Positions 5,689 to 41,680 of a stretch of 64,000 bases of DNA are shown here, one piece after another (the stretch's first letter is position 1; each line of letters begins with the position of its first letter). The stretch comes from a virus (lineage: Duplodnaviria > Heunggongvirae > Uroviricota > Caudoviricetes): the IMG/VR virus record IMGVR_UViG_3300028887_000002, positions 212,278 through 276,277 of that record, one strand, 5' to 3'. Below the pieces are notes generated by a model. That model searched no databases. It saw only the letters and a list, made by a program, of their open reading frames with translations, and was not told where the DNA came from. The position numbers and the translations under genes are program-made.

Positions 5689-6144
5689 ATGAGTGACAAT
5701 ATTTTAGAAAACTATCTTAAACAGGTAGAAGAAGACAAGAAGAATGAAAACAACGACCTTCCAAATGGTATTAAGCGTGAAGATATGACAGACGAGCAGT
5801 ATGAACTCTATCAGAAGGAACTGAACAAACTCAGACAGCAGTCGAATGCGGAAGCCGAAGCAAAGAGGAAGTTCAATGAAACCTACATCAAGATTTCAGA
5901 GGAAAGCCTCATATCTACAGACAAACTGGCAGTTGAGGATGCAACCATAAAGGTAAAGAGGGCATATTGTCCTCATTGTGGCAAGGAAATAGTATCCAAG
6001 TTGCCGTCGATGTGGAATCCTTATACAGGAGAAAAGATTTGCCGTTATGACTGTGAATGTGGTTTCAAGGCTAATCTAGAATATACTTATCCAAGGCTAG
6101 TAATACTTGACAAGGATGGAAACGAACTTGATATTCAATTCTAA
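5689..6144 (+). CDS. hypothetical zinc-ribbon protein (CPHCG ... CRYDCECG)
   Basis: ORF with CxxC pairs. Confidence 0.6.
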   Translation: MSDNILENYLKQVEEDKKNENNDLPNGIKREDMTDEQYELYQKELNKLRQQSNAEAEAKRKFNETYIKISEESLISTDKLAVEDATIKVKRAYCPHCGKEIVSKLPSMWNPYTGEKICRYDCECGFKANLEYTYPRLVILDKDGNELDIQF

Positions 6145-6173
6145 TAATAATGAGAAGAAATTGTAATTGAGAA

Positions 6174-7166: not shown

Positions 7167-7174
7167 TAAGAACT

Positions 7175-9180: not shown

Positions 9181-9201
9181 GAAGACTTATGTTGATACGC
9201 C

Positions 9202-9987: not shown

Positions 9988-10025
9988 TGTTTTCGGATAT
10001 TTATACTTAGTAAAACTTATACGAT

Positions 10026-10436
10026 ATGCCAGTACTTAAGAAATATAAGGTGAAACTCAACTCGAAGGATAATCTTGAATGCCTCTTGCAGGAACTTTAT
10101 GACGAGGCTTGCAAGAACCTTGTTGAGATACAGAACCAGATGAACAAACTTACAAGTTCCGTCCAACTCAACGATGAGATTATGGATGGCAAGGCGAAGT
10201 ATGCCAAGGCGATGAACGACTATCTCACCAACAAGAACAAGGCGATAAACACCAAACTGGATGTTGCAAGGCTTCTTTCTGATGTAATAAAGATGCAGGG
10301 CGACAAGCGCAAGGACAAGGGTGACGTTGATGAGGTTGGCGACTGGGATAAACTGCTTGACAATCTGAGTGAAAAGGATATGCTTCCGATTTCTTCAACC
10401 AACGAGAAGAAGGGTGAACAATATATTTTGAAATAA
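10026..10436 (+). CDS. hypothetical coiled-coil protein (136 aa)
   Basis: ORF with an ATATTTATAC element about 33 nt upstream. Confidence 0.55.
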   Translation: MPVLKKYKVKLNSKDNLECLLQELYDEACKNLVEIQNQMNKLTSSVQLNDEIMDGKAKYAKAMNDYLTNKNKAINTKLDVARLLSDVIKMQGDKRKDKGDVDEVGDWDKLLDNLSEKDMLPISSTNEKKGEQYILK

Positions 10437-10448
10437 TCTTTTGAGGTT

Positions 10449-12569
10449 ATGGCTACCAGTAAGGAGATGAAGGAGAAGACATTGGCTACTATTGATGGTG
10501 CGCTGTGTGTTTTGGACAAGTTACCGAGGCTTGACCCGACCAATATCGACATATCATTCAATGCATCGGTAAACCCGTTTGAACTTCTTCTTGATATGCT
10601 GAAGCGTACAAGGGGATATGACGGGATGATTGAGATACTGTCAAAGATAATTGGTTGGTCGGTGGACGCATTGGAACCCATAGTCAAGGCATTGATAATT
10701 TCAAACCTCAAGTCTTATTTCACCTGTAGCATAAACCCAATAATACCCGACAGGCTGTTGGAGGACGGATTTGTCTTTGACTTGAAAAAGATTGACATAA
10801 ACGGCATAATGAACTATTCTCCTATAAGTTCAAGAGCAAAGTTGCCGTACTACGATGATAATCCTGGCAAATATATGTACTTTGGTTGTGAGGATTTTGA
10901 AACCACCGATGACCTTATAAACGCCACCGACTTTGACGCATTCTTGTGGTATGTGAAGAACTGTACCACGGACAGACAAGTTTGGTTGGGGGTTGACTTA
11001 CTTAAGGCTAACCAAATATCAGGTTCTCCGAGGCCAAATTCAAAATTTACCAAGCAACGCAAGTCAGATGGCATTGTGACGCTTGAATATAACGGGCGTT
11101 CATCGGGGTTGACTAAGGCTATGGGGGAAGCATATAATATTCCACCAGCAACACTTAACACCCAAGTCCCGTTCAACAACTGCATACATTTGTTCATAGG
11201 AAATGTACTGAAAGTTCCAGAAAATGAAGTACAGGCGCTTTATAGTACAATACCGATGGTTAGACGTAATATTAGTGACTTACATAACACCATTGATAAG
11301 GCTAGAGATTATATCAGTGAAATAGAAGAGACTTTAAAAGAACTGAAAAACGACAAGAACCTTACGGCAGAGGAACTGAAAGAGAAGGAAAACTTCTGCA
11401 ATGCAGACATCTCCAACCTCAGAACTGCTATAAAGGCAATGAAGGGAACGCGCCGTAATGATACATCAGTCCAAGATGTTATGGGTAACATATTAGTTCC
11501 AGACGGGGATACGCAGAAACTTCTTCCTTTACAATCAATAAACACCGAACTGGTTATACCGACATCAATAGTCGAAACAAGCATAATTGAAGAGGAGAGG
11601 TATTTAAGACAAGCGGTTCAATCGGAACAGACCCAAGCCAACAACGGAATGTATCGTCCGATTGAAATGAACTACTACTACCGCAAGCCTTTATTCCTGT
11701 TCAACTACGACTATGTAATGTCATTGAAGATATTTGACAAGAAGGTTGTTACCGCACAGTTGGTTGATGCGTTGACGCAATGCTTTACCGTCAATATGTC
11801 GTTGTCCTACGAGGAGGCTCTTATCCGTGCGGAAGTGGAACGGATGGTAAATGATATTGTTGAGAGTGATGACACCTATGTGAACGACTGTTTCTTTACG
11901 TTCGCCAACGATACCTACAATGATATGCTGGAGACCACGCAGATGAACCATATGGGTATTCATACGGACAGCAATGGAAACGGACGTGTTATTGACTATA
12001 GTAGCATAATGGATGCTCTGAACCAAGTAAGCGAGGCTGCCACTGAAAACGATATGAGTACTGCAATAGAGGGTGTGTTGAGTGTTGCTTCAGCCTCATT
12101 GTTAAGTATAGATGAAACTAGGGAGCGAGATTTCAAGGCTGACATTACATTGATTGAAAGTTTTATGACAAATCTTGCTGCTGTGCTGGTAAGAGCGTTG
12201 ATTTCACCCAAACTATATATGCTGATGGCTGTAAATATGCGTGTTATGGGTGATGCGAACCCCAACTTCGATGTCGGTAACTTCATAAGGATGAATAAGA
12301 ACATGATGGTTTCGCTTATCCGTTCCATAAGGGATGAACTCATTAGGCTTATAATGAATGAGGTTATGTCCATCCTTAAGGATATTGCTGAAAGTGTTAT
12401 GGCAAAGTTGACGGTTGAACAGTTCCAGTACTACAAGAACCTGCTTGCAAGTTGCATTGAATGCTTCAGACTGTTCGGTACTGGCATCAGCGACTGGAAT
12501 ATGGATAATGTTGATTACGCTGACATCTATGAGACTGACGAGCCTGAACCACAACCAAATAACTGCTAA
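10449..12569 (+). CDS. large virion structural protein, probably a baseplate or tail component (706 aa)
   Basis: Long ORF immediately upstream of the small paralogs and the gp5/gpV-like hub gene. Function inferred from context only. Confidence 0.45.
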   Translation: MATSKEMKEKTLATIDGALCVLDKLPRLDPTNIDISFNASVNPFELLLDMLKRTRGYDGMIEILSKIIGWSVDALEPIVKALIISNLKSYFTCSINPIIPDRLLEDGFVFDLKKIDINGIMNYSPISSRAKLPYYDDNPGKYMYFGCEDFETTDDLINATDFDAFLWYVKNCTTDRQVWLGVDLLKANQISGSPRPNSKFTKQRKSDGIVTLEYNGRSSGLTKAMGEAYNIPPATLNTQVPFNNCIHLFIGNVLKVPENEVQALYSTIPMVRRNISDLHNTIDKARDYISEIEETLKELKNDKNLTAEELKEKENFCNADISNLRTAIKAMKGTRRNDTSVQDVMGNILVPDGDTQKLLPLQSINTELVIPTSIVETSIIEEERYLRQAVQSEQTQANNGMYRPIEMNYYYRKPLFLFNYDYVMSLKIFDKKVVTAQLVDALTQCFTVNMSLSYEEALIRAEVERMVNDIVESDDTYVNDCFFTFANDTYNDMLETTQMNHMGIHTDSNGNGRVIDYSSIMDALNQVSEAATENDMSTAIEGVLSVASASLLSIDETRERDFKADITLIESFMTNLAAVLVRALISPKLYMLMAVNMRVMGDANPNFDVGNFIRMNKNMMVSLIRSIRDELIRLIMNEVMSILKDIAESVMAKLTVEQFQYYKNLLASCIECFRLFGTGISDWNMDNVDYADIYETDEPEPQPNNC

Positions 12570-12583
12570 AACAATATAAATTT

Positions 12584-12979
12584 ATGAGTTGGATAAAACA
12601 GATTTCAGACAGGGTAAACACACTTTTTGAGAATGCAAGGGCGCCAATGCCCACCATTCCTCCGATACTGCTTGCGTGTGAGATTATGCGCCGTCCAGGG
12701 CTTTCGGCTATGGCGTTGGCTGCTTCAATAATAAGGAGACTTCCAGAAGCAGGTGTTCCTACTGACAGAAATCCCGATGGTAGCGAGAATGTCGTGGTGA
12801 AGACAATAATGATTGGGTGTGAGGAACTGGTGAGGGAGATAAAGGAGAACTCCTCGGTAACGTGCGCATTAAGTCCTGGACAGATAAACGTGACAATAAG
12901 CGGTGGTAATGCTGGCGGTCCTATCATTGGTACGGGAACCAACGTTGCACCATTTACAATAAAAGGTATATTCCAATAG
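12584..12979 (+). CDS. hypothetical protein, paralog A (131 aa)
   Basis: MSWIKQISDRVNTLFENARAPMPTIPPILLACEIMRRPGLSAMALA... is clearly homologous to the next ORF. Confidence 0.55.
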   Translation: MSWIKQISDRVNTLFENARAPMPTIPPILLACEIMRRPGLSAMALAASIIRRLPEAGVPTDRNPDGSENVVVKTIMIGCEELVREIKENSSVTCALSPGQINVTISGGNAGGPIIGTGTNVAPFTIKGIFQ

Positions 12980-12983
12980 GACT

Positions 12984-13358
12984 ATGGGGTGGATAAAGAC
13001 TATATCATCACGGGTGAACAACCTTTTTAAGAATGCAAGAACACCAATCCAAAGCATCCCCCCGATACTTATGCTCTGTGAAATCTACCGACGCCCTGGA
13101 CTTTCTGCTATGGCTTTGGCTTCACAGGTGATAAGAAGGCAGGAGGTTACCGATGACTATTGCCCCTGCGGTATTGCGAATGTTAACAACAGGGTTTGGA
13201 AGATAATAGCTGAGGAGGTTGTAAAGCATATCAAGGACTATGGCATTGCTAAATGTACGATAAATATGGGCGACATTCAGTTCCAATGTATTATTGGCGA
13301 AACCACTATGTCGGGTAGCAACCTCAATACGATAGGTATTGATGGAATCGGAAGTTGA
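12984..13358 (+). CDS. hypothetical protein, paralog B (124 aa)
   Basis: MGWIKTISSRVNNLFKNARTPIQSIPPILMLCEIYRRPGLSAMALA... is a tandem duplicate of the 12584..12979 protein. Confidence 0.55.
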   Translation: MGWIKTISSRVNNLFKNARTPIQSIPPILMLCEIYRRPGLSAMALASQVIRRQEVTDDYCPCGIANVNNRVWKIIAEEVVKHIKDYGIAKCTINMGDIQFQCIIGETTMSGSNLNTIGIDGIGS

Positions 13359-13383
13359 TAACAAAGAAAAAATTCATTAATAT

Positions 13384-13575
13384 ATGGAAATAGAAATGTT
13401 TACGAACAAGGAACTCGAAGACCAGATGGCTTCCATTGAGAAGAGGTACAATGAGGAGAAGTACAACTGCAAGGTCACCATTGACGAGGCTATCGAACGT
13501 ATGGAAAAACTTTCAAACGAATATGAAAAGGTAAAGGCAGAATTAAAGCGTAGAGGAGGACAGATTAATGGTTGA
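13384..13575 (+). CDS. small coiled-coil protein (63 aa)
   Basis: ORF overlapping the next gene start by 8 nt. Confidence 0.4.
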   Translation: MEIEMFTNKELEDQMASIEKRYNEEKYNCKVTIDEAIERMEKLSNEYEKVKAELKRRGGQING

Positions 13576-21956: not shown

Positions 21957-22216
21957 TACTTCAACAATTTGCTTCTAATCTGACGCATTACTGATTCGGT
22001 TATCTGGTCAACATATCTGTCAACGCTTTCGTCCTTTGAGGATTTTACTCGTTCGGGAAGTCCTTTGTCTTTGGTTTTTGCAAACTTGCGTACTTCTTTC
22101 CTTGTCATTGAGTCTGCGGCTTTCTTTACCTCTGGACTTGCATTATCCAGTTCGCCCTTCTTGTAGGCATCAACTAACCTGAAAAAGCGGGCCTGTTTCT
22201 TACTCTTCGCTGGCAT
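21956..22216 (-). CDS. small lysine-rich hypothetical protein (86 aa)
   Basis: ORF whose start overlaps the downstream gene by 1 nt. Confidence 0.45.
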   Translation of the reverse strand: MPAKSKKQARFFRLVDAYKKGELDNASPEVKKAADSMTRKEVRKFAKTKDKGLPERVKSSKDESVDRYVDQITESVMRQIRSKLLK

Positions 22217-22233
22217 TGGTTTAAATATTTATA

Positions 22234-24363
22234 TTAGTTATTATATTCATCTTCGACTTCTTCTTCACCAAAACCATAATATTCGTCTTCCACCTCAACT
22301 GGTCTGAAATGCCCATATTCATCCTTTACGTATTCATTGTAGTCCTCATCACGATACAACGGTTCGTCATCCTCACGGTTCATCATCTCCCAACCATGTG
22401 GAACTCTAGTGTTATGGGGTTCAAACCATTCGTTAGGACGATGTTCCTCATCTGACGGATATTCAATATCACCTCTCTGGTTCATCTGTATTTCAAAATT
22501 ACCAAGCCCATACATTTCATTGATTACTCGCTTGACACCGTTTGAGATAACCCTCTTCAACTGGGATTCTGTTAGTCTTATAGTTCTCTTTGTCATATTA
22601 TTATAATTTTTGTTATAATTATTTTCGTTAATTCTGCGATTATATAATGAGTTAGGATTCTTTTTTTCAAGTTCTTGAATCTTCAGATTTATAACGTCCT
22701 GTTTACGAACCAATTCATTCGGGAGATTTCTCAATATTTCATCCCTCTTGGCATTGGCTTCAGCAAGCGCGTCGTTTAGTAACTGTTCGTTCTTCGGTTC
22801 CGCAGTCCATTTGTCCACAAACCAATCTGACCACTCGTCATGCATTGCCCCGCACTCATTATAGACTCGTGTGTAGGGATATTCGTGGTTTCTGAAGATT
22901 TCAACCAAACAGTCATTTCCTGTTTTATATGCGTTTCCCAAATCAGTGTTCACATTCACAATATTCTTTACCAAAAAATCATCTATTTCACTTTGGATTT
23001 TCAAATATTCAGACCTTAATAAGTCTTTTTCTTTCACATATTCTTCAAACGCAATCTGTTCGGGACTTACATAATCATTGAAATATTCAGCGACTGTTTC
23101 AGGGGAATAATAGTTCGTCCTATTCCCATACATACTGGTGTGATGCCATTCATCGGGGGTTATGTTCGGCAGTTCCCTTTTGATTCGTGCAACCGAAACC
23201 TTCACACTGCCGTTATTTTGTTTGATTAGATTATTCACCTCCTCAGCAAATTCTCTTCCAATCTGCGACTTGTTTCTCAGCCCACGGCTTTCAGCATCAA
23301 CAGCCCTTCGGCTTTTTGAATAGCCGACATAACCGCTGTTACCACCGAAGTATCTCCTTCCTTCATTCACATCATAGAACACCTCGTCGTTCCGTAGCAG
23401 TTCCAACGAAGCCTTTTCCATCTCGGAAGGTTCCCTTGGCGGAAAGTCTCTCTTAGGTATTGTGAACCCAGGTTCCTTGCGTTCGTAGTCATCCTTCGGT
23501 TTAGGTCTCAAATCAGACAAAATGTGATTTATCCTTTCACGGTTTCTAGTGAAGAGATTTCTAACCAAGAGTTTGTTATACAGTGGTTTTCCATTGACCT
23601 CTATTGTATAGGCTTTATTACCAAACACATCGAGCGCACTACAGATTGCGTTGGCTTCATAGGTGTTAATCTTGTCGTCCCTCATCACTGACCTTAATAT
23701 TGTTATGACTCCAGTATAAAACGTGTATTTATTTTCGCCATCCAACGATTTCTTAACCTCGTTCACGCTTTCAACGGTGTCAATCCTTATAAACTTTTCG
23801 TTAAGTTTCTTAACATTGAATATGACATATATATCATCTTCCCTATAACCATCATAACCCAGTTTCAACAGCATATCGGCAATGAACGGAATATAGTTGC
23901 TTGGGACGTGGCTATACCATAACTCCCTCATACTTGAAGGCTTTTTCCACTTGACAATATCAATTATGCGTTCAGTTATGCTGTCGCAAACAATGCTCTT
24001 GTAGAAATCATTTGTTTTGTTGATTTCCGTCTCGTACATATCATAGTCACGGTTGTTCCTTACTTCGCTTTGCTTGTTTCGAAGCCATTGTAGGTCATCT
24101 TCCGCATTGATAACGTCTTTAAAAACCTCTGTTGGGTTTGCGTTGGTACTGACAAAGTTAAACTCATCAGCCTTTACCGCATAGAACTTCGTGCCGTAGT
24201 CCAGCGCCTTTGACGGACGTGACGTGAAATAGAAGCCGTAGCCCTCACCAGCCCTAAACCCACCTTTTATGAAGGATGAATCGAACTTATCTATGTCTAG
24301 GTTCGTGCCGTGTACAATATAACCATTTCCAATATATTCAGCAATGAGTTTAAACAAGTCCAT
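22234..24363 (-). CDS. 709-aa multidomain protein: N-terminal PARP-like (H-Y-E class) ADP-ribosyltransferase-like domain, Asn-rich linker, C-terminal 120-aa module (22234..22596) starting MTKRTIRLTESQLKRVI that is homologous to the CTS-like family
   Basis: YIVHGTNLDIDKFDSSFIKGGFRAGEGYGFYFTSRPSKALDY matches the PARP signature HG[ST]...I...GF...G.GIYFA..SKS..Y. The C-terminal module aligns with the N-termini of the 38156..38800 and 48840..49190 proteins and has an acidic, aromatic-rich tail. Confidence 0.5.
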   Translation of the reverse strand: MDLFKLIAEYIGNGYIVHGTNLDIDKFDSSFIKGGFRAGEGYGFYFTSRPSKALDYGTKFYAVKADEFNFVSTNANPTEVFKDVINAEDDLQWLRNKQSEVRNNRDYDMYETEINKTNDFYKSIVCDSITERIIDIVKWKKPSSMRELWYSHVPSNYIPFIADMLLKLGYDGYREDDIYVIFNVKKLNEKFIRIDTVESVNEVKKSLDGENKYTFYTGVITILRSVMRDDKINTYEANAICSALDVFGNKAYTIEVNGKPLYNKLLVRNLFTRNRERINHILSDLRPKPKDDYERKEPGFTIPKRDFPPREPSEMEKASLELLRNDEVFYDVNEGRRYFGGNSGYVGYSKSRRAVDAESRGLRNKSQIGREFAEEVNNLIKQNNGSVKVSVARIKRELPNITPDEWHHTSMYGNRTNYYSPETVAEYFNDYVSPEQIAFEEYVKEKDLLRSEYLKIQSEIDDFLVKNIVNVNTDLGNAYKTGNDCLVEIFRNHEYPYTRVYNECGAMHDEWSDWFVDKWTAEPKNEQLLNDALAEANAKRDEILRNLPNELVRKQDVINLKIQELEKKNPNSLYNRRINENNYNKNYNNMTKRTIRLTESQLKRVISNGVKRVINEMYGLGNFEIQMNQRGDIEYPSDEEHRPNEWFEPHNTRVPHGWEMMNREDDEPLYRDEDYNEYVKDEYGHFRPVEVEDEYYGFGEEEVEDEYNN

Positions 24364-24389
24364 AATAAATGAAAATATTTTCTAATAAA

Positions 24390-24425
24390 TATTTGGTGTA
24401 TTGAAAAATAACAATTATTTTTGCC
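24390..24425 (+). promoter_or_regulatory. Bacteroidota-type promoter (TTTG 24393..24396, TATTTTTG 24416..24423); second copy of the conserved divergent promoter block
   Basis: Same architecture and about 80% identity to 3575..3615. It drives the small ORF at 24457 and, by read-through, tnpB. Confidence 0.6.
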
Positions 24426-24456
24426 ACGATTTTTGAAAGAAAAATATAAAAACAAA

Positions 24457-24592
24457 TGGCTGACACGAAACTGACTATAGAAGAGATAGAAGTAGCACTT
24501 GCGGAGTCAAGGGATTTCAGTTATCTGAAGAACCTTATGGTATTCAATGTCTATGGATTATTGAAAAAATTTAAAAAGTTACCTATTTTTTA
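24457..24592 (+). CDS. small ORF (44 aa, MADTKLTIEEIEVALAESRDFSYLKNL...) immediately downstream of the promoter and ending at the IS junction
   Basis: Open frame ending 14 nt before the GC-rich IS. Its C-terminus may have been altered by the insertion. Confidence 0.35.
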
Positions 24593-24605
24593 ATAAAAGA
24601 AAAAA

Positions 24606-25950
24606 ACTTGATACGCAACTACACATACCGCCTCTACTCCTCCAAGCACCACAAGGCTTTGGCGAGCCTCATCACGACGGCAAACCACACGTGGAACCAT
24701 ATCGTCGCCCTGTGCCACAGGTACTACCGCCGATACGGGAAGTCCGTGTCGGAGGGACAACTGAAGCGCCACATGGCGAAGATGGCGAAGAGGGACAGGT
24801 ATATGTCAAAGTTGCACTCACAGTCGCTCCAGGCAATATGTGAACGGTACGAGGACGCGCTGAAACAAGCCTTCAAGATAAAGGGTCGTGGATTGCCCCA
24901 CGCCCGAAGGATGTTCGGGAAAGGCTCGGTGCTGTTCAAGGGCAACGGTGGGTATGTCCTTGAAGCCGTAGGCAACAAGGGCGTACTGCGCATAAACAAA
25001 CTGGGGAAAAACTGGAAGTTCCGCTTCAAACTAACACGTCAGTGGGGCGAGGTAAGGAACGTCACGGTAAAAAGGGATGAAGACGGCTACTACTACCTGA
25101 CGGTATGCTGCAACGTCCCCGACGAACATCTCGAAAGGGAAGGTTACGCCTCCATCGGGATGGACTTCGGGATGAAGACGTTCCTCACGCTGTCGGACGG
25201 CACTGCCGTGCAGATTCCCGACTACCACAGGAAGGCGCTTGCCGAACTGAAGGCTGCCGACAGGTCGCTGTCGCACAAGCGCAACGCAAAGGTCTATGGT
25301 TCATCATACCGCAGGGCGAAACACCACAGGCAGGTCGCCTATGCCAAGGTCACCAACAGGCGGTCGGACTTCCACTGGAAACTCGCGCACGAACTGTGCA
25401 GGAAGTACAGTTTCATCGCCATCGAGGACTTGAACATGAAGTCCATGCAGATGCACAGGAACTGGGGAAGGAAGGTCTCTTCCCTTGGGTACTCGGAGTT
25501 TGTAATGAAACTCATGGTCGTTGCAGAGAAGTACGGTACGGTCGTCCACAAGATTGACCGCTGGTATGCATCCAGCCAGACTTGCAGCAAGTGCGGGTAT
25601 GTGTACAAGGGAACGAAAGACCTTAAAGTCCGCGAGTGGACTTGTCCTGTCTGCGGTACCGTCCACGACAGGGACGTGAACGCGGCTATTAACATATTGA
25701 ATGTCGCCTTAAACGACATAAGCGGGAAGGGCGTTTCCCGCGTCGGGAGCAATAGTAAGACCCCCAAGGGGCAACCCTCGGAGGCAGTTGCGCACGGGTC
25801 TTGCGACCCCGCTACCGACCAAGAATCCCACTCACTTTGATTTGTTTTCAACAGTGGTGGGAGTACGTCAATGGGCTTCAATTGAAGCACCATATCCCAA
25901 GAAACTGTTCCTTGAACAGCAACTGGAACTTGCACGGCTCGGCAGTATGA
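24606..25950 (+). mobile_element. IS200/IS605-family tnpB-only (IS1341-like) element, GC-rich insertion
   Basis: A block of roughly 55-60% GC with abrupt boundaries in ~35% GC DNA. It contains an intact tnpB plus about 105 nt of GC-rich 3' region with a perfect 14-nt palindrome (GCTTCAATTGAAGC) consistent with a right end / omega-RNA scaffold. Confidence 0.7.
24608..25840 (+). CDS. tnpB: TnpB (OrfB) RNA-guided RuvC-like nuclease, apparent TTG start
   Basis: N-terminal YTYRLY resembles the TnpB start. RuvC-I is GMDFG, RuvC-II is AIEDLN, the zinc finger is CSKCG...CPVCG and RuvC-III is DRDVNAAINI. Confidence 0.85.
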   Translation: MIRNYTYRLYSSKHHKALASLITTANHTWNHIVALCHRYYRRYGKSVSEGQLKRHMAKMAKRDRYMSKLHSQSLQAICERYEDALKQAFKIKGRGLPHARRMFGKGSVLFKGNGGYVLEAVGNKGVLRINKLGKNWKFRFKLTRQWGEVRNVTVKRDEDGYYYLTVCCNVPDEHLEREGYASIGMDFGMKTFLTLSDGTAVQIPDYHRKALAELKAADRSLSHKRNAKVYGSSYRRAKHHRQVAYAKVTNRRSDFHWKLAHELCRKYSFIAIEDLNMKSMQMHRNWGRKVSSLGYSEFVMKLMVVAEKYGTVVHKIDRWYASSQTCSKCGYVYKGTKDLKVREWTCPVCGTVHDRDVNAAINILNVALNDISGKGVSRVGSNSKTPKGQPSEAVAHGSCDPATDQESHSL

Positions 25951-25995
25951 GAGTGGTGGTAGCAAAAAAAAAGATTAATAAAAAACAAAGAACAA

Positions 25996-26633
25996 TGATA
26001 GACGATTTAACATTACAGCCAGCAGGTGAGGTCATTGACAACTTTGAACTCATCAAGCCAATCCTTGAGTTCAACAGTGAGGACGACTTCTATTTTGTGC
26101 AGATATTGGAACGGAAGAAGGAACATCCCGAACTCGGTTCAAATTCAAGAGTGTTGAAAACATATTATATCAAGAACATAGGGCATCTCAACTACCTTTA
26201 TGATGAGATACGGACATTGTGCATAGTCTTCAATGCCCGTGCCTATATCCATCCGACTAAGCGTTCGTTCGAGAGGATAACCTATCAGACCTTGAAGATG
26301 GTGACGGACTATATTATCCAGCCCGATTTTTCACATGCCCACAGGTCTTGGGATTCTGCTTGTGGCAAATACGCCACGGGCAACGGCAAGAGATGGATTG
26401 TAGATGTTGACAACGGCTGTTGCGAGGATGACGAGGAAACCCTACGAAACTTTATAAACGGCATATTCCCTGCAACGGACGACAGGATATTGCTTAAGGT
26501 TCCCACCAAGAACGGCTATCATCTAATCACAAAGCCGTTCAATCTGATGGAGTTCAAGAAGCAATATCCCAACATTGACGTTCACAAGAATAATCCGACA
26601 TTGCTGTTTGCTGTGAAAAAATTTGACAAATAA
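25996..26633 (+). CDS. hypothetical protein (start probably MIDDLTLQ at 25996, or MRVVV at 25947)
   Basis: AT-rich ORF resuming just after the IS right boundary. The 5' part of the track ORF (25788..) lies in IS DNA and is not native. Confidence 0.5.
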
Positions 26634-26650
26634 TAAAAAACTAACGAAAC

Positions 26651-27037
26651 ATGTGTTTAAAGAAGAAAAATTTTGTTGCTGACGCACTGCTTAATGTTGT
26701 GAAAACAAACAACACATTAAGTTATATAACAAATGGTTTTATCAAAATTGAAAAAACATTAAATACCATAACATCGCCATTACATCTATCGGTGATAGAT
26801 AACTACATCCAAATATATGAAACAGTTGCAAATTCTAAAATTAATTCCATTGGCGATGAAGATACAAGAGATTGGCTTCAGGAAGTTCTTGTCAGACGGC
26901 TTAACGCTTTGGAGAAACTTCAAGACAAAATAATTACTGATATGGCAACATATGCCAAAATAGGCACCGAAAGGATTAACAAGGAAATTGAACACGAGAA
27001 TCATTGGCGTGAAAACAACAAAAAAAATGAAAAATAA
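26651..27037 (+). CDS. hypothetical protein (128 aa)
   Basis: ORF. Confidence 0.5.
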   Translation: MCLKKKNFVADALLNVVKTNNTLSYITNGFIKIEKTLNTITSPLHLSVIDNYIQIYETVANSKINSIGDEDTRDWLQEVLVRRLNALEKLQDKIITDMATYAKIGTERINKEIEHENHWRENNKKNEK

Positions 27038-27070
27038 TTTGGTAGTTTCAAAATAACCGATTATATTTGC
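27035..27070 (+). promoter_or_regulatory. Bacteroidota-type promoter (TTTG 27037..27040, TATATTTG 27061..27068)
   Basis: Matches the consensus with 20-nt spacing. Upstream of the gene at 27098. Confidence 0.55.
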
Positions 27071-27097
27071 AAATATTAACTTTAAAACTTTACGACT

Positions 27098-27727
27098 ATG
27101 GGAGGAAACAAACATTGGATTTGTGAAACAATGGACGAAAAGGATGCAAGAGAATTGGCGGAAGATTGGGTAAAAAGTGGCGGACAGGTTCGTGAAGACG
27201 GCCCGCACGGTGGAAACAATACTGACCATTTACACTTGTTCTTGGACAATGACAAGAACAACGACGTTGTACTCAACTACACTCGTGGCACAGGCTACGA
27301 AGGAGAAGAAGACCACAGCGGAAGCAGTGACTCTTCGAGTTCAAACGACGATTACGACTGGCCTGACGACAACAGCGACAGTAGTAGTTCGGATGACGGC
27401 GGTTGCTTTATCACCACTGCGGTTTGCGGTTCATTGGGAAAACCCGACAACTGTGAGGAACTGACTTTGTTCAGACGTTTCCGCGACACATATATGCAAC
27501 AGACTGTTGACATGCGTTCGGATATCGCTGAATACTACGAGGTAGCACCAAAGATATGCACCGCCATTGATGCGCTTGGAAAGCAAAAGGTTGACAAGGT
27601 CTACGGACAGATATGGAACGAGATGCTTAAGCCGACCTTTAATGCGTTGAAGAAGGGAGAAATGGACAAGACGTATCGCCTTTATAAGGGAATGGTTATG
27701 ACATTGAAGAAAAAATATTTAAAATAG
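27098..27727 (+). CDS. hypothetical protein with Ser/Asp-rich low-complexity tract and GGCFITTAVCGS motif
   Basis: ORF. The motif is not confidently assignable to a known family. Confidence 0.5.
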   Translation: MGGNKHWICETMDEKDARELAEDWVKSGGQVREDGPHGGNNTDHLHLFLDNDKNNDVVLNYTRGTGYEGEEDHSGSSDSSSSNDDYDWPDDNSDSSSSDDGGCFITTAVCGSLGKPDNCEELTLFRRFRDTYMQQTVDMRSDIAEYYEVAPKICTAIDALGKQKVDKVYGQIWNEMLKPTFNALKKGEMDKTYRLYKGMVMTLKKKYLK

Positions 27728-27742
27728 TAAATTAGAAAAATC

Positions 27743-28204
27743 ATGAAGAAACAATCGGTAGAGTACAGAGTGAGGCAGGAAGACCTCCTCAGAGCAGAAT
27801 ATCGCGGGATAATAGAATATTCAAAATTACATTTGGTTGCACGAAAAGGTGAACCAGTTAGAACCTACGAAGACCGAAAGAACTGGCTGGGCAACGTGAA
27901 GGAAGTTTGTATTATTTCAGAAACTGAAACATATCAAGAGGATATGTATGTTACTGACTGGACTAACAGCCGTCGGGAAAGGGAAAAATATGAAAGCATG
28001 AATCCCATAAGTGCATGGATAATGGAAGATATGAAATGCTTCATAGAAGATAATATTATCTATTTTAAGCCATATGTGACGTTATATTTCAAAGAAGATT
28101 GTGGGAATGACATTACTATACCTTTTAACAAGGAAGAAGAAGCCCTTGAGTATCTTGACAGCCTGAAGGAAGAATTGCCCATGCTGGTGGTTGTGAAGGA
28201 ATAA
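27743..28204 (+). CDS. hypothetical protein (153 aa)
   Basis: ORF. Confidence 0.5.
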   Translation: MKKQSVEYRVRQEDLLRAEYRGIIEYSKLHLVARKGEPVRTYEDRKNWLGNVKEVCIISETETYQEDMYVTDWTNSRREREKYESMNPISAWIMEDMKCFIEDNIIYFKPYVTLYFKEDCGNDITIPFNKEEEALEYLDSLKEELPMLVVVKE

Positions 28205-28223
28205 CAAAAAATTAGTTAATATC

Positions 28224-28796
28224 ATGGAAATACTAGTTAAAGAATTTTGTGATGGTTACGGACGGAATGTCAAAATCCCATCAGATGTTCTTTCCAAGGC
28301 GATTGAACGTTATAAAACTGAAACTAACAAATTGGAGAATAGTTTTGGTTGTTTGTTAGAATACAGAAAACTTCCATTACAAATGTCGGTTTCTGATATT
28401 AGTCATAAAATATCATCAATTGAACAAAACGGAGATAATAGTCTAATATGTAAGATTGAGACATTCAAATCGCCTCTCAATGTTTTGGATGAAATATTAG
28501 AAAACGAACCCGAAACACTTATGCCAGTAGTAAGCGGTTGGAAGGATGAAAATGGTGAATATAATATTCATTCAATAAATTTCGTACCAAATGTCACGGA
28601 AAATCAATTTGATTGCAAATACCAAGGCAGACTGGTCAATCAGGGAATGACATTATGCTTTGCTGATGAGGATGTCAACTTCCCGAACTGTTCGGAGGAT
28701 TGTCCTAAATATAAAAAGTACGAACCAAAAGAACCTAAATACACTACGGATGAGAATGGCAATGTAGTAATTGACTTGGTTGACGAAAATAATTAA
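28224..28796 (+). CDS. hypothetical protein (190 aa)
   Basis: ORF. Confidence 0.5.
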   Translation: MEILVKEFCDGYGRNVKIPSDVLSKAIERYKTETNKLENSFGCLLEYRKLPLQMSVSDISHKISSIEQNGDNSLICKIETFKSPLNVLDEILENEPETLMPVVSGWKDENGEYNIHSINFVPNVTENQFDCKYQGRLVNQGMTLCFADEDVNFPNCSEDCPKYKKYEPKEPKYTTDENGNVVIDLVDENN

Positions 28797-34544: not shown

Positions 34545-34557
34545 AAAATAATTTTTT

Positions 34558-34592
34558 TATTTGTTTTTCAGAAATTCCGATATATATTTGCA
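34558..34592 (+). promoter_or_regulatory. Bacteroidota-type promoter (TTTG 34560..34563, TATATTTG 34583..34590) for the DNA polymerase gene
   Basis: Consensus match with 19-nt spacing. Confidence 0.55.
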
Positions 34593-34657
34593 TCGGCAAA
34601 TGATGTTACCGAAGTGTAACTTAACCTTGCCCTGAATAATTATATAAATTATTATCA

Positions 34658-37600
34658 ATGGAAGAAAAAAACATTTATCATTCAACCAAGGAAGACATCC
34701 AGAGTTTCCTTTCGGGTTCCAACCCGTTCGAGCACATAATCAAGATTGAGTGCGACAATACCGACAACGAGGTAACGATAATCTACCGTGACGAGAACTA
34801 CAACAAGCAGATGATGAAGGACGACTTCAAGCCTTTCTGTTGGTGTACCCAGAGGGTTGCCCGTGAAATGTATAATGGTGACCGTAACAAGTTAAAGTCC
34901 GCAATGGCAAAGTATGGAATATCTTGCAGGGGGCTTGTAACAGCAAGGTCTGACGGGAGAGTTCCCGAAAGGATGGCAAACGGCTTCAACATAATGTTCT
35001 TCGCCACCGAGAAGATGTCCTACCGCGACTTTATGAAGTTCTTCAAGGAGGCTGGCGTACCAATCTATCCGAGGGAAGGCGACAAGAACTACGACAGGGT
35101 TGACTATGTGGTTGTTGCCCCAGCCGAGCAGTATATGATACAGACGGGCAAACGGTTGTTCAAGGGGTATGAAGACTACGATGAACTGCTTAGGATGGAG
35201 TGGGACTTGGAAACCGAGGGACTTGACCCTAACAAGTGTATGATTAGCCAGATAGGTATCAGAACCAACCACGGCTACGAGAAGATTATCCCGATAGACG
35301 GCGAGGGTGACGAGAAATACGACAACGAACTGGAAGGCATACTACAGTTCTTCTCAATCATCAAGGAACTTTCCCCCGACATACTGACAGGCCACAACAC
35401 CGAGAACTTCGACTGGAACTTCATTGACGTGCGACTTAGGGTGCACGGGCTTGAAATGTCGGAGGTAAGCAAGGACTACTTCCCAAAGGGTGTATATAAG
35501 AAAGACAAGGAGAATGTACTGAAACTCGGCGGTGAAATAGAATACTTCAAGCCGACAGTGATGTGGGGAACCAACATAACGGATTCGCTGTTCGCAGTAA
35601 GAAGGGCACAGGCGCTTGATTCCAATATGAAGAAGGCCGACTTGAAATACGTTACCAAGTATTCAGACCTCAACAAGCCGAACCGCGTCTATGTGCCTGG
35701 CAAGAAAATCAACGACACGTGGGTTGACAACAGTGAGACCTATGCCTTCAATGACGAGAACGGCATTTGGTTCAAGGTGGATGACAAGGTTATGTCCCGT
35801 ACATATATAGAGGTTGATGGGAACGGTGACGATATAAGGTCTACGAGGTTTGAGTTGAACGGCAAGAGCCTTCTTGACAAGCAGGACGGTGTGACATATC
35901 AGATGGTAAGCGGACGGTATATCGTTGAACGATACCTGCTGGACGACCTTTATGAGACGGACAAGGTTGAAGCACGTTACAACCAGTCGAACTATCTAGT
36001 GGGGAAGATGCTACCAGTATCATACGAGAAGATGTGTACGATGGGTACTGCTACAATATGGAAGTACCTTATGTTGGCGTGGAGTTACGAGCACGGGATT
36101 GCAATACCAGAACCAACCAAAAAAAGACCCTTCACGGGCGGGCTAAGTCGTTTAATAACAGTGGGTTACAGTAAAAATGTAGTCAAAAATGACTACAACA
36201 GCCTTTATCCTAGCATTATACTTACATTTAAAATCAAGACCGAAGTTGACATTACAGACGCAATGTTGTCGTTGCTTGAATATATCCTAACCCAGCGCGA
36301 ATACTACAAGGGGTTGAAGAGCAAATATGGCAAGGAGGCGAACAAGTTGGAAGACCAATTGTCAACGATGGACAAGTCTCACCCCGACTACAAGAAACTA
36401 AGCGAGAAGAAAAAGGAATGTAAGCGACTTAAGAGTCAGTATGACAAGATGCAACTACCGCTCAAGATTGTTGGGAACAGTTTTTTCGGAAGTTTTGCCG
36501 CGTGCGGAACGATATTTTATTGGTCAGATATGGACTGTGCCGAAAAGACAACCTGTATCGGCAGACAGATGTTTAGACTTCTTATCAGTTGGTTTAAACA
36601 TTTAGGTTATCAACCAATCGTAGGTGATACCGATGGTATAAACTTCAAGGTCGCCGACAACCTTAGGTACACAGATGAACACCCCTACATATCTAACGGC
36701 AAGGGGCGTAATACTGAAAAGGGTAAGGCGTACACAGACGTAAGGGCTGATGTCGCGGAGTTCGAGGACTTGTTCCTGACGGGCAAGAACGGCCTTGACA
36801 TTGACGAATTCGTTCCAGCCAGCGTATATCTGAAGCGAAAGAACTATGCCGACCTTCTTGATGACGGCAAGATGAAACTCGTAGGCAACACGTTGAAGTC
36901 AAAGAAGATGCCGTTGTATATAGAGAAGTTTATAGATACTGCGATGAGAATGCTCCTGGAGGGCAGGGGCAAGGATTTCCTTGACTATTACTACGACTAC
37001 ATTGAGAAGATATACAACCTACAGATTCCGTTGAACGAGATAGCCTCAGTCGGCAAGATTAAGACCAGTATAGACGATTACAAGAAGAACTGCAAGACGC
37101 TTACGTCCGCAGGTAACAAACGTGCAAGACAGGCATGGTACGAACTTGCAATCAAGCACAACCTCAGCGTAAACATGGGCGATACAATCTACTACATCAA
37201 CACTGGCGACAAGAAGTCGTCTTCGGACGTGCAGAGGCTGACCAAATACTACCGCAAGAACCTGTTCGGCGAGGATGATGTTACAAAGGATATTACCAAG
37301 GAATACAAGACCGCAGTCAAGAACGGTACTGTTCCAAAGTCAGTTAAACTGGCGCAGTATGTAGCCGAGAACCACAAGGACATCGAGGAGAGGGACGAAC
37401 TCATATTCAACTGCGTGATGATACCCAATACAATAATGGAGGACGAGGAAACGGAGCACCTCTGCGACGAAAACTTTGAATACAACGTTGATAAGTACAT
37501 TGACATGTTCAACAAGCGCATATCGGGTCTTGCAGTATGCTTCCACCCGTCAATAAGGTACAGGGTGGACGAGAATGGAAAAACAGTCAATAACCTGTTC

Positions 37601-38083
37601 GTTTCCAACCCATCCGACAGAAAGTACTTTACCGAGCAGGAGTGCGAACTGGTTGCAGGTATGCCGTTAGACCCCAAAGACCAGGACAGTTACGAGGATA
37701 TAATGCGAATGGAGGACAAGGAGATTAGGTTCTGGACTTCAGTCAACGAGATACCGCCTTATGTTGAAGAATGCGGTATGAACTGGGACGAGATTGTAAG
37801 TGACTACAACGTAAGGCAGGAGGAACTGAGAAAGGAAGGAATACGCCAGGAGGTTGAATTATACAATCTAATCATAGACAATATGACACAGGAACAGATT
37901 GACGAGTTCGAGGATGAGGGGACATTGCCTGAAACCCTGTTGAATATCGTAGAGGAAGGAAAGGGCATGGAATTCGTATCAAAGAAGTACGGAGTCGCAA
38001 TCGGTACAATATACGACATAATTGACCGCGAACCCGTCGGAGATGGTGACAGTACACCGATTCCATCGTTCCCTTCAAATTAG
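34658..38083 (+). CDS. family B DNA polymerase with 3'-5' exonuclease domain (1141 aa)
   Basis: Exo I WDLETEGL, motif A DYNSLYPSII, motif B KIVGNSFFG and motif C VGDTDGI. Confidence 0.9.
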   Translation: MEEKNIYHSTKEDIQSFLSGSNPFEHIIKIECDNTDNEVTIIYRDENYNKQMMKDDFKPFCWCTQRVAREMYNGDRNKLKSAMAKYGISCRGLVTARSDGRVPERMANGFNIMFFATEKMSYRDFMKFFKEAGVPIYPREGDKNYDRVDYVVVAPAEQYMIQTGKRLFKGYEDYDELLRMEWDLETEGLDPNKCMISQIGIRTNHGYEKIIPIDGEGDEKYDNELEGILQFFSIIKELSPDILTGHNTENFDWNFIDVRLRVHGLEMSEVSKDYFPKGVYKKDKENVLKLGGEIEYFKPTVMWGTNITDSLFAVRRAQALDSNMKKADLKYVTKYSDLNKPNRVYVPGKKINDTWVDNSETYAFNDENGIWFKVDDKVMSRTYIEVDGNGDDIRSTRFELNGKSLLDKQDGVTYQMVSGRYIVERYLLDDLYETDKVEARYNQSNYLVGKMLPVSYEKMCTMGTATIWKYLMLAWSYEHGIAIPEPTKKRPFTGGLSRLITVGYSKNVVKNDYNSLYPSIILTFKIKTEVDITDAMLSLLEYILTQREYYKGLKSKYGKEANKLEDQLSTMDKSHPDYKKLSEKKKECKRLKSQYDKMQLPLKIVGNSFFGSFAACGTIFYWSDMDCAEKTTCIGRQMFRLLISWFKHLGYQPIVGDTDGINFKVADNLRYTDEHPYISNGKGRNTEKGKAYTDVRADVAEFEDLFLTGKNGLDIDEFVPASVYLKRKNYADLLDDGKMKLVGNTLKSKKMPLYIEKFIDTAMRMLLEGRGKDFLDYYYDYIEKIYNLQIPLNEIASVGKIKTSIDDYKKNCKTLTSAGNKRARQAWYELAIKHNLSVNMGDTIYYINTGDKKSSSDVQRLTKYYRKNLFGEDDVTKDITKEYKTAVKNGTVPKSVKLAQYVAENHKDIEERDELIFNCVMIPNTIMEDEETEHLCDENFEYNVDKYIDMFNKRISGLAVCFHPSIRYRVDENGKTVNNLFVSNPSDRKYFTEQECELVAGMPLDPKDQDSYEDIMRMEDKEIRFWTSVNEIPPYVEECGMNWDEIVSDYNVRQEELRKEGIRQEVELYNLIIDNMTQEQIDEFEDEGTLPETLLNIVEEGKGMEFVSKKYGVAIGTIYDIIDREPVGDGDSTPIPSFPSN

Positions 38084-38094
38084 GGTATAAAAAA

Positions 38095-38128
38095 ATAAAG
38101 CGGGCTAAATTGATAGTCCGCTTTTATA
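38095..38128. terminator. bidirectional terminator-like hairpin between the convergent genes (AAAGCGG ... CCGCTTT with flanking A and T runs)
   Basis: 7-bp stem read from the sequence. Confidence 0.5.
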
Positions 38129-38155
38129 ATGTTATGAAAGTATCTTATCTAATAA

Positions 38156-38800
38156 TTAACGAATATAGTTGCGGATGATACGGGAAACAGTTTCATTAAT
38201 ATTATTTTCCCTCCGATTTTTCCAACCCTCACCTTTAATATAATTTGTTCTACCATGAAGATAATTGTCTATAGTATGACCTATTTCGTTATTTTGTAGG
38301 AATTCTTTATATTCATCATCGGTTTCAAAATCATATTTTTCTCTGCCTATAGGAATATCACCATATTCTTCAAACTTACCATTCCAATCAATCTTTTCCA
38401 TATCCCTATCCCAATCAATATCATGAGGACTTTTATAGTGATACCCAAAGAATACAGGCCCAGTTGCATTACTTCCGTCAGACCACCAACCATCATTATC
38501 CTTTACATATACATCATCACCTATAGGCCGTAGTGATAAATTTCTACCAAATTGTTTAGACAAACCTTTGCTAGCACTTGTACTAAAATCTCTAGCTCTA
38601 TTATCTTCTTTTTTATATTCATTCCGATTTTTATCCCAATCGTCTCGTTTGGAAGGGTCAACATACCTTTTGTAAGCAGCGTCGGCTTTTTTCTGTGCCT
38701 TTCTTGCCGCATTCATATAAGTTTTCCAATCAAGTTCGTTGATTGCTTCTCTGACAATATTCCTTAGGTCAGATTCTGTAAGTCTAATTCTTTGTTTCAT
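38156..38800 (-). CDS. hypothetical protein with CTS-like N-terminus MKQRIRLTESDLRNIVREAINE and Trp/Asp/Glu-rich body (214 aa)
   Basis: N-terminal motif shared with the proteins at 48840..49190 and 3134..3553 and with the module at 22234..22596. Late-promoter-like element upstream. Confidence 0.6.
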   Translation of the reverse strand: MKQRIRLTESDLRNIVREAINELDWKTYMNAARKAQKKADAAYKRYVDPSKRDDWDKNRNEYKKEDNRARDFSTSASKGLSKQFGRNLSLRPIGDDVYVKDNDGWWSDGSNATGPVFFGYHYKSPHDIDWDRDMEKIDWNGKFEEYGDIPIGREKYDFETDDEYKEFLQNNEIGHTIDNYLHGRTNYIKGEGWKNRRENNINETVSRIIRNYIR

Positions 38801-38825
38801 ATTATAATCAATTTTATTTCGTTAT

Positions 38826-38848
38826 TATGATTATAAATAGTACAAGAT
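38826..38848 (-). promoter_or_regulatory. putative phage late promoter element (minus-strand GTACTATTTATAATCATAATAAC, core TATTTAT at 38833..38839, 33 nt from the ATG)
   Basis: Conserved with the elements upstream of the capsid, scaffold and 48840 genes at similar spacing. Confidence 0.45.
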
Positions 38849-38869
38849 AAAAAAATAATAAAAAAAAAA

Positions 38870-38904
38870 TCTTGTTACTTTCAAATATTTGATTTATCTT
38901 TGCA
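38870..38904 (+). promoter_or_regulatory. Bacteroidota-type promoter (TATCTTTG 38895..38902) for the methyltransferase gene
   Basis: Consensus -7 element. Upstream TTG(T) at 38872..38875 is a weak -33 element. Confidence 0.45.
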
Positions 38905-38923
38905 CTCATAAAATTAACTAATA

Positions 38924-40411: not shown

Positions 40412-40444
40412 CTTCGGAAGGGTTATATATGTAAGTGAAATTTG

Positions 40445-40469
40445 AAATGTTTAACTAAAAGAAAGGAAT
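40445..40469 (+). promoter_or_regulatory. conserved 25-nt 5' leader AAATGTTTAACTAAAAGAAAGGAAT with strong Shine-Dalgarno-like GAAAGGA; identical copy at 49839..49863
   Basis: Exact 25-nt identity between the two sites. Both precede an ATG GCx start. Confidence 0.5.
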
Positions 40470-40475
40470 AATATT

Positions 40476-41609: not shown

Positions 41610-41636
41610 TTGACTTTTCCAAAGCCATATATATTT

Positions 41637-41680
41637 GAAAGGACGGTTGCTAATATTAACTTCCGTCCTTTTTTTGTTTT
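41637..41680 (+). terminator. rho-independent terminator (AAGGACGG ... CCGTCCTT plus TTTTTTGTTTTT)
   Basis: 8-bp stem and T-run. Confidence 0.6.

Follow-up and report, generated by a model that had tools for sequence, protein, structure and literature searches.

A left-end-truncated IS200/IS605-family tnpB element, with a predicted omega-RNA and a candidate homing target, in a jumbo phage genome

The 64,000-nt stretch of DNA analysed in this work (the window) covers positions 212,278 to 276,277 of the IMG/VR virus record IMGVR_UViG_3300028887_000002 (Caudoviricetes). It contains a GC-rich block that is, by its sequence, a tnpB element of the IS200/IS605 family of insertion sequences (IS), truncated at its left end and without tnpA. 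The guanine-plus-cytosine (GC) content is 0.51-0.60 over about 24600-25900, about 0.40 in the window background, and 0.28 in the 300 nt directly upstream of the block. The original prediction, which was made from these letters alone, was right about the GC-rich block and placed the background too low, at 0.35. The open reading frame (ORF) of tnpB has a GC content of 0.553 against 0.395 in the remaining window, and a GC content at third codon positions (GC3) of 0.75 against 0.44-0.61 in phage genes. Genes for a T4-type major head protein (phrog_138), a family B DNA polymerase, and an HNH/homing endonuclease mark the window as phage DNA. A metagenomic locus (L207) that is 100% identical to window 14773-35840 lies on a contig of 339,275 nt (JGI 3300031993 Ga0310696_10000014), and therefore the source of the window is a jumbo phage with a 339-kb genome. 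A second near-identical contig of 339,287 nt encodes the same TnpB protein, so the element is not an artefact.

The tnpB gene (24608..25840, + strand) starts with TTG and encodes a predicted RNA-guided RuvC nuclease of 410 amino acids. The protein matches the Pfam families OrfB_IS605 (PF01385, 1e-15) and Cas12f1-like_TNB (PF07282, 2e-23), and it aligns nearly end to end with the TnpB of ISDra2 (8BF8/8EXA/8H1J, E 1e-47). The three RuvC catalytic positions (D/E/D) are identical to those of ISDra2 TnpB, and both CxxC pairs of the zinc finger are present. An intact TnpB with its RuvC residues and zinc finger had been predicted, and these matches bear it out. The position of the start codon is common to copies that begin with ATG (L176 and L177), GTG (L178), and TTG (the window copy, L167, L208, and L210). 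The version produced by gene callers starts at Met56, which gives the 355-aa form P0124. The dN/dS ratio between the window tnpB and four close copies is 0.08-0.12, and tnpB is under purifying selection (dN/dS ~0.1) as measured across all copies. Compared with nine full-length members of its protein cluster, the window TnpB has a single private substitution (A249T), while the members carry 1-7 each.

This cluster (P0001) has 18 members at at least 90% identity, and the DNA context was fetched for several of them. The close copies are 91-94% identical to the window copy at the nucleotide level and are inserted at no fewer than six different sites across related phage contigs. Three forms are seen: tnpA with tnpB, tnpB only with an intact left end, and copies that have no left end. 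The tnpA+tnpB form is found in L176, which lies at a distance of about 100 kb on the 339-kb contig that also contains the window, and in L177, from a related phage that is 85-92% identical to window 1157-13515. Both encode a 134-aa Y1 TnpA (Pfam Y1_Tnp, 3e-40). The tnpB-only form is found in L178/L179, from a related phage that is 90-99% identical to window 34554-47814, and in L208/L209 and L210 from other related phage contigs. L167 carries tnpB only and has no left end; its right flank is as in L177 and a tRNA-Cys lies to its left. The copy of L176 spans 7384-9250 of that locus (contig ~186.6-203.8 kb) and is 91% identical to the window copy, with a synonymous divergence (dS) of 0.35. Another close copy (L175 1-911, 95% nucleotide identity) has a premature stop where TAT has become TAA, at the codon equivalent to window ~25339-25341.

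The right end of the element stops at 25871 (...GGGAGTACGTCAA), 31 nt past the stop codon of tnpB. Homology among the copies in L167, L176, L177, L178, L208, and L210 ends at ...GTACGTCAA, after which the flanks differ. The terminal 10 nt (AGTACGTCAA, 25862..25871, + strand) are the last that are shared with the siblings, and homology with an uninterrupted phage locus (L180) restarts at 25872. They are preceded by a subterminal hairpin (CCCACTCAC...GTGGTGGG, 25827..25861, + strand) with a 14-nt insertion in its loop. This hairpin belongs to a conserved module, AGAATCCCA-stem-loop-TGGGAGTAYGTCAA, which is present with co-varying stems in 57 distinct fetched loci, among them Poribacteria elements that are only about 37% identical in protein. 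The window copy thus retains the right-end palindrome and a defined terminus. L210 is structurally the copy closest to the window copy; it shares the 14-nt loop insertion yet has an intact left end. In one 63%-identical relative (L172 6001-7332), a tnpB ORF of 443 amino acids reads past the conserved right end (7267) into the flank.

The original prediction had read about 105 nt of GC-rich 3' flank with a 14-nt perfect palindrome as consistent with a right end and an omega-RNA scaffold. This does not agree with the comparison, in which only the 31 nt past the stop codon are IS and the ~120 nt after them, of moderate GC content, are the remnant of a phage gene. The 14-nt palindrome GCTTCAATTGAAGC (25876-25889) falls inside that remnant. 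As it belongs to the coding sequence of the split gene and L180 has no palindrome there, it was ruled out as a right-end feature.

At the left side, the IS-derived DNA begins at about 24559/24562, which gives a total extent of about 24559/24562 to 25871. An AT-rich IS leader of 48-49 nt (24559/24562-24607) precedes the TTG of tnpB, so the IS does not begin at the start codon as had been proposed. A left boundary at 24570, which had been drawn from L167 alone, was revised to 24559-24561 after comparison with L178, L208, L210, and L180. The remnant of the left end (24562..24607, + strand) consists of the inner leader only and is homologous to the left end of L210/L208 and the leader of L178. Of the ~114-nt left end of L210/L208, the window copy keeps the final 48-49 nt. 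The first ~62-65 nt, with the hairpin and the cleavage site, are gone from it, whereas both features are present in the siblings L177, L178, L208, L210, and L001. The left-end hairpin motif was not found anywhere in the window at up to 3 mismatches. Intact left ends read TTAT followed by (C/T)GAA..GTGCGAGAAG(A/G) and then the hairpin CCCACGTGTTTCAACCGTGGG. In nine loci, the left-end hairpin has TTAT or TTAC at 18-19 nt on its 5' side, and the distant relatives L168, L172, L173, and L002 have TTAC at the same 18-19 nt spacing. Comparison of relatives therefore gives TTAT/TTAC as the target motif of this IS clade. The motif TTGAT, which had been noticed at the junction, was ruled out, as 24608-24612 is no more than the TTG start codon with the two bases after it. 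In the L176 copy the position 18-19 nt before the left-end hairpin is not TTAT, and a TTAT lies 29 nt upstream.

The siblings resemble elements of the IS608/ISDra2 type in having a 134-aa Y1 TnpA that overlaps tnpB and subterminal hairpins at both ends. The family is also similar to them in its insertion 3' of a tetranucleotide (TTAT/TTAC) without duplication. IS608 has TTAC 19 nt before its left hairpin and TCAA 10 nt after its right hairpin; in the present family the right end likewise finishes in TCAA, 10 nt beyond its hairpin, and 18-19 nt separate the cleavage site from the left hairpin that follows it. Unlike IS608 and ISDra2, the window copy has no tnpA, left-end hairpin, or cleavage site, the family resides in jumbo-phage genomes and not in bacterial chromosomes, and its long-form left end has an outward-facing promoter motif. 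The siblings show every defining feature of IS200/IS605 elements, and the window copy lacks two of them (tnpA and the left end). A tnpB-only IS with no room for a left-end region had been described, and an IS200/IS605-family element with neither tnpA nor a functional left end is supported.

The uninterrupted locus L180 was recovered by a metagenome scan with the neighbouring 212-aa protein. It belongs to a related phage contig with 87-91% nucleotide identity that does not have the block, and thus the comparison with a related phage lacking the insertion, which the original prediction had suggested, gives both the boundaries and the TTAT motif. Window 24378-24561 aligns with L180 6594-6774 at 87%, and the alignment is taken up again by window 25872-28206, which is 91% identical to L180 7050-9376. 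Where the window has 24562-25871, L180 carries 275 nt completing an intact ORF of 168 amino acids (L180 6669-7175). This ORF matches phrog_2776 at E 3e-16, and its match to MmcB-like proteins is weak and sub-threshold. The window retains the first 35 codons of this gene (24456..24561, + strand), as indicated by the L180 alignment and the phrog_2776 match, and a 3' remnant of about 40 codons (25872..25994, + strand) that matches L180 and shares the peptide WASIEAPYPKKLFLEQQLELARLG. The 45-aa ORF at 24456-24593 is made of the first 35 codons of the split gene running into the IS leader. The spacing given for a small phage ORF upstream is correct, since tnpB begins 14 nt past the stop of this ORF, but the ORF is the truncated start of the split gene fused to the leader and not a gene of its own.

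At the right junction, L180 reads ...AAGACTTAT followed by TGGGCATCAATCGAAGCACC, which places TTAT directly 5' of the sequence that follows the right end in the window. The element is, as the alignment reads, inserted 3' of TTAT inside the 168-aa phage gene without target duplication. The simplest history is that one ~340-bp deletion across the left junction followed the insertion and would have removed 275 bp of the gene together with ~62-65 nt of the left end. In this history the element arrived as a compact tnpB-only IS, made up of a ~114-nt left end, tnpB, and a right end of 31 nt past the stop codon. The absence of room for a left end is thus due to a secondary deletion and not to the native design of the element. 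This structural history, a canonical insertion at TTAT followed by a deletion, is held with high confidence. The left breakpoint has a TTAT at 24558..24561 (+ strand) in the aligned window, L180, and L210, and the TAT at 24559-24561 is common to the phage and IS sequences, which makes a 3-nt microhomology at the junction. The deletion may have been mediated by this microhomology or may have come from an aberrant TnpA event; the junction is compatible with both. The 168-aa phage gene would be non-essential in this history.

The window copy itself has no tnpA, and a Y1 TnpA is encoded in trans in the same genome. As the left-end hairpin and the cleavage site are missing, the window copy can no longer be excised or moved by TnpA, even with this enzyme encoded elsewhere in the genome. 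Continued mobility of the copy, by way of a cryptic left end lying further upstream or of another mobilisation route, would agree with the presence of this TnpA and with a left breakpoint that follows TTAT. We consider it extremely improbable, since no left-end hairpin is present in the window, the sequence to the left of 24561 is collinear phage DNA in L180, and the TnpA of this family needs a subterminal hairpin, as has been established for IS608.

The original prediction had taken the block for a recent acquisition from a host. In that account, a complete tnpB-only IS came newly from a Bacteroidota chromosome, without a native left end and with a right end of ~105 nt that includes the palindrome. 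The strong contrast with the phage in GC and GC3 agrees with it, as does one 54%-identical relative on a short contig of a Bacteroidales metagenome-assembled genome (MAG). That relative, on a contig of 1.2 kb, was the best TnpB match among 185,579 bacterial and archaeal species genomes. The other matches were Poribacteria at 35-39%, and no bacterial donor IS or other close copy was found in this set, in which the proposed check for a Bacteroidota donor came out negative. All copies with at least 90% amino acid identity are in phage contigs, at six or more sites, and the dS between copies is 0.22-0.39, which equals or exceeds the divergence of the phage backbone. Relatives of 63-66% identity (P0002, P0003, and P0005) are also among phage-type genes. 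A left end is defined in the siblings, the element stops on the right at 25871, and the palindrome belongs to phage coding sequence. The import from a host is therefore very improbable. The element is, on this distribution, endemic to these phages and not a recent host import, and the high GC content (GC3 0.75) is a stable property of the IS family in AT-richer phages and not a mark of recency.

Close relatives were not found in the other viral collections. Megablast of window 22000-28500 against 50,697 cultured-phage records gave no match, and in a distant search of cultured-phage records with the element the sole match was 84 nt of Lactobacillus phage Lb338-1. The search of IMG/VR gave no close relative; the best TnpB match had 52% amino acid identity, the neighbouring gene reached at most 44%, and the exact right-end pattern was not found there.

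The identity per 100-nt window among the copies in the window, L167, L176, L177, and L178 swings between 0.84 and 1.00, at places that differ by pair. These mosaic profiles suggest recombination between IS copies. Dating of the insertion from dS was rejected as unreliable for the same reason.

The window also holds an empty target site for a sibling. On the minus strand at 6127..6150, TTAT (6150-6147) is followed by TATTAGAATTGAATATCAAG, and this site is occupied in L177 by the tnpA+tnpB copy. The flanks in L177 match window 13515-6146 and 6146-4457, with ~1880 nt of IS between them. The window at 6146 on the minus strand is uninterrupted, reading ...CTCATTAT followed by TATTAGAATTG, and there is no target duplication. 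The guide of L177 differs from the empty site of the window at 2 positions, so that the genome of the window is a potential target of the TnpB of its relative. The same site is occupied in L167 by the copy without a left end. L167 and L177 have identical right flanks of 68 nt while their tnpB genes are 6.5% apart. L167 is the second, independent left-end-less copy, with leader, tnpB, predicted omega-RNA, and right end intact, and its left breakpoint is about 10 nt apart from that of the window copy, at a different insertion site. From these two copies there is a hint that elements which have become immobile may persist, though a pair of cases does not make a trend. The tRNA-Cys of L167 (394-464, minus strand) lies directly to the left of its left-end-less tnpB, and this left flank is unrelated to that of L177. 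The variable region at window 38131-38845, between the DNA methylase and DNA polymerase genes, has 715 nt of AT-rich sequence that is unrelated to L178 7807-9430. The latter contains the tnpB-only IS plus about 320 nt including a 56-aa ORF, and no simple empty site can be defined for it in the window.

An omega-RNA scaffold is predicted at 25670..25871 (+ strand; the 5' limit is approximate). It overlaps the last ~170 nt of tnpB and reaches the right end. The consensus fold of ten homologues with 52-96% amino acid identity has 50 pairs. In this consensus, 93.8% of cells are paired against 40-53% with the partners slid, and 18 pairs are changed on both sides; the observed covariation was reached in 0 of 500 shuffles. 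In one long-range helix, the DRDVN codons pair with ACGUC immediately upstream of the right end. On its own, the window sequence has a folding energy of -67.6 kcal/mol (z -3.7). In three of four comparisons, the last 45 codons of tnpB have a dS of 0-0.06 against 0.23-0.42 elsewhere, and this near absence of synonymous change points to an overlapping RNA at the 3' end of tnpB. Folding of the 3' region as an omega-RNA had been proposed as a check, and it returned this covariation-supported structure. No Rfam family was matched by the whole window at gathering thresholds, or by 25500-26000 at E<=10. The production of the omega-RNA and the activity of TnpB are predicted from these comparisons.

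The first 20 nt past the right end (25872..25891, + strand; TGGGCTTCAATTGAAGCACC) would encode the guide. The intact L180 allele, which reads TTAT and then TGGGCATCAATCGAAGCACC, matches this guide in 18 of 20 nt with TTAT adjacent; the mismatches, at positions 6 and 12, are synonymous. The guide had been predicted to be the adjacent phage sequence, and this match supports it. No second match to the guide 20-mer occurs in the window when up to 3 mismatches are allowed, and its own copy in the window is preceded by TCAA and not by TTAT. The arrangement is that of a homing-type site, in which the target is present in the gene-free allele (L180) and the motif is absent from the occupied allele. 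L180 retains an empty site of TTAT plus target for the guide of the window copy, and the window retains such a site for the guide of the L177 copy, with 2 mismatches in each case.

A Bacteroidota-type promoter motif (TTTG-N20-TAttTTTG; 24392..24423, + strand) of the split gene lies about 185 nt upstream of tnpB and is supported by motif enrichment. The window has 14 matches to TTTG-N17-23-TAnnTTTG where 3.4 would be expected, and 14 was reached in 0 of 100 shuffles. This enrichment points to a Bacteroidota host. The original prediction had placed a duplicated promoter ~190 nt upstream of tnpB; the position is about right, and the motif is one of a family of 14 rather than a simple duplicate, its closest copy being at 3562-3623 with 84% identity. 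The promoter segment at 24392-24423 is conserved in L180. No terminator-like site was found on the + strand between the 24392 motif and the right end, and tnpB is plausibly read through from the promoter of the split gene, as had been proposed.

Promoter-like sequences of this family (TTTGGTnGTTTGAAAAATA...TATnTTTG) are located at window 3581, 24392, 27038, 29801, 49793, 53811, 57668, and 58695 (+ strand). The long-form left end of the IS has an outward-facing motif of the Bacteroidota type (TTTGGTTGTATCAAAAAGACGTTGTATCTTTG) directed toward the leftward neighbour genes, with sites at L176 ~7480-7515 and L178 ~7910-7945 (minus strand). This outward promoter may limit the polar effects of insertion in phage operons.

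We consider the explanation as a whole reasonably probable, namely an immobile, left-end-truncated element with an intact TnpB, which possibly spreads by RNA-guided homing that is independent of TnpA. The homing function taken separately is held more tentatively, at somewhat less than an even chance. In the proposed mechanism, tnpB would be transcribed from the own promoter of the split gene, and the transcript would yield both TnpB and the omega-RNA, whose guide would be the 16-20 nt past the right end. The TnpB complex would not cut its own genome because TCAA replaces TTAT beside the guide match there. In a co-infecting relative, the cut would fall in the uninterrupted allele (TTAT + TGGGC.TCAAT.GAAGCACC), and with the tnpB-bearing genome as the template for repair, both tnpB and the deletion would be copied into the rival, as a TnpA-independent, non-restorative homing. 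Only the non-restorative route would be available because excision by TnpA is impossible for the window copy.

Several findings weigh against this interpretation. The deletion allele was not found in a diverged backbone among the loci compared, where only two near-identical contigs carry it. L180, the only intact allele found, mismatches the guide at positions that are inside the usual seed region, so that L180 itself may not be cut, and two mismatches in 20 nt are what is expected from the 91% background identity. The purifying selection was measured over all copies and not specifically since the left end was lost; with a recent deletion, the copy could simply have had no time to decay. Other copies do decay, as seen in the premature stop of L175 and in fragments of 222 and 349 amino acids in the P0001 cluster. 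The start codon of tnpB is TTG. The 14-nt loop insertion might affect the RNA, though L210 has it together with an intact left end.

An inert relic was also considered. Under this reading, the copy would be an IS fragment at a dead end, with a tnpB that has stayed intact only because the deletion is recent, and it would have no useful expression, cut nothing in nature, and go on to decay. The loss of a left end is an ordinary fate of IS copies, decayed siblings exist (L175 and the shortened cluster members), the guide differs at two positions from the one intact allele that is known, and the signal of selection is not specific to the lineage after the deletion. However, the window TnpB has one private amino acid change against 1-7 in mobile siblings, and the omega-RNA and the right end are intact. 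The deletion ends just upstream of the tnpB leader and puts the gene under a phage promoter, and the independent left-end-less copy of L167 also keeps the leader, tnpB, and the right end. We regard the relic as unlikely, with a weight that should not be neglected, and favour the immobile element with a TnpB that may be active.

The window TnpB is of the same length class as ISDra2 TnpB (8EXA, 8BF8, and 8H1J; aligned residues 2-368, E 1e-47), and its predicted scaffold likewise overlaps the 3' end of the gene and stops at the right end. It differs from ISDra2 TnpB in its distant sequence, in an inferred target motif of TTAT in place of TTGAT, and in an omega-RNA that belongs to no Rfam family. 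The free-standing homing endonucleases of T-even phages (SegF, SegB, and Mob) would be similar to the window element in behaviour, as a selfish nuclease whose gene is flanked by conserved phage sequences and which cuts the allele lacking it in a co-infecting relative; they are known for intronless homing and marker exclusion. The window nuclease is an RNA-guided RuvC of transposon origin and not a GIY-YIG or HNH enzyme, so that the likeness is in the manner of working and not in family. In Geobacillus, the TnpB and IscB of IS elements bias transposon inheritance by cutting the empty site (Meers et al., PMC10055086). The window has the same arrangement of a right-flank guide that matches a transposon-free allele beside a target motif, in which repair templated by the occupied allele would restore or spread the element; unlike in Geobacillus, the target would lie in a different, co-infecting phage genome, and a 275-bp gene deletion would also be transferred. 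A TnpA-independent "non-restorative homing" has been described for IS605 on plasmids and proposed for phages (review PMC13565253).

A tnpB that has been domesticated for the benefit of the phage, either for killing competitors without homing or for transcriptional control like that of TldR, was also considered. The copy is immobilised yet intact, lies under a phage promoter, and is under purifying selection, and homing endonucleases can give phages a competitive advantage (PMC13565253). The nuclease-dead TldR repressors (bioRxiv 10.1101/2023.11.30.569447) are similar to the window TnpB as immobilised homologues with a fixed guide. The catalytic D/E/D of the window TnpB is intact, hence it is not TldR-like and not a member of that group. 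Its guide is the native flank of the insertion site, as in any IS copy, and has not been retargeted. The original prediction had named the same gene at the same place in relatives as the sign of domestication. The gene does not lie at a conserved locus in relatives; it is at other sites in L177, L178, L208, L210, and L176, and L180 is uninterrupted. We therefore consider domestication quite improbable.

Cas12 descends from TnpB, for which the current explanation of a natural role is guide-directed homing that keeps or spreads transposons. This role has been shown mainly in bacterial chromosomes and plasmids. The homing by TnpB is already established, and IS605-type elements and tnpB in phage genomes have been reported earlier. 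A wider claim is that left-end loss is not decay and instead offers jumbo phages a way to fix tnpB as an RNA-guided nuclease, independent of TnpA, for homing or competitor exclusion; it is speculative and rather doubtful at present. Under this wider claim, related jumbo phages would attack the genomes of each other with transposon-derived RNA-guided nucleases, a programmable counterpart of Seg and Mob. One phage lineage provides a natural series that comprises an autonomous copy, tnpB-only copies, two left-end-less copies, a pseudogene, and matched empty sites. This allelic series makes the TnpA-independent homing between co-infecting phages testable. The annotation of the locus is also corrected: it holds a split phrog_2776 gene, the small ORF is a by-product of this split, and the GC-rich gene is endemic to these phages.

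Other features were observed elsewhere in the window. An ORF of 709 amino acids (22234-24363, minus strand), divergent from the split gene, has a weak, sub-threshold match to the ADP-ribosyltransferase of polyvalent proteins (PF18760, E 7e-5). An ORF of 561 amino acids (43273-44958, minus strand) matches phage homing endonuclease and HNH families (phrog_3339 at 2e-92, and phrog_559) and directly adjoins the gene of the major head protein (45125-47077). A second tnpB (52512-53741, minus strand) encodes 409 amino acids from an ATG start, with HTH_OrfB_IS605, OrfB_IS605, and TNB domains. It belongs to an unrelated clade and is 29% identical to the first tnpB. It has a GC content of 0.54 and a GC3 of 0.75, with surroundings of 0.26-0.35 GC. 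A motif and leader near-identical to those of the outward-facing promoter lie upstream of it (53811-53842, + strand). Its homology with the viral loci L041 and L046 stops near 52530, within the last codons of the ORF, which may thus read through its own right end. L181 has a relative of this second tnpB, 83% identical over the last ~140 nt, beside a fragment of a C5-methylase.

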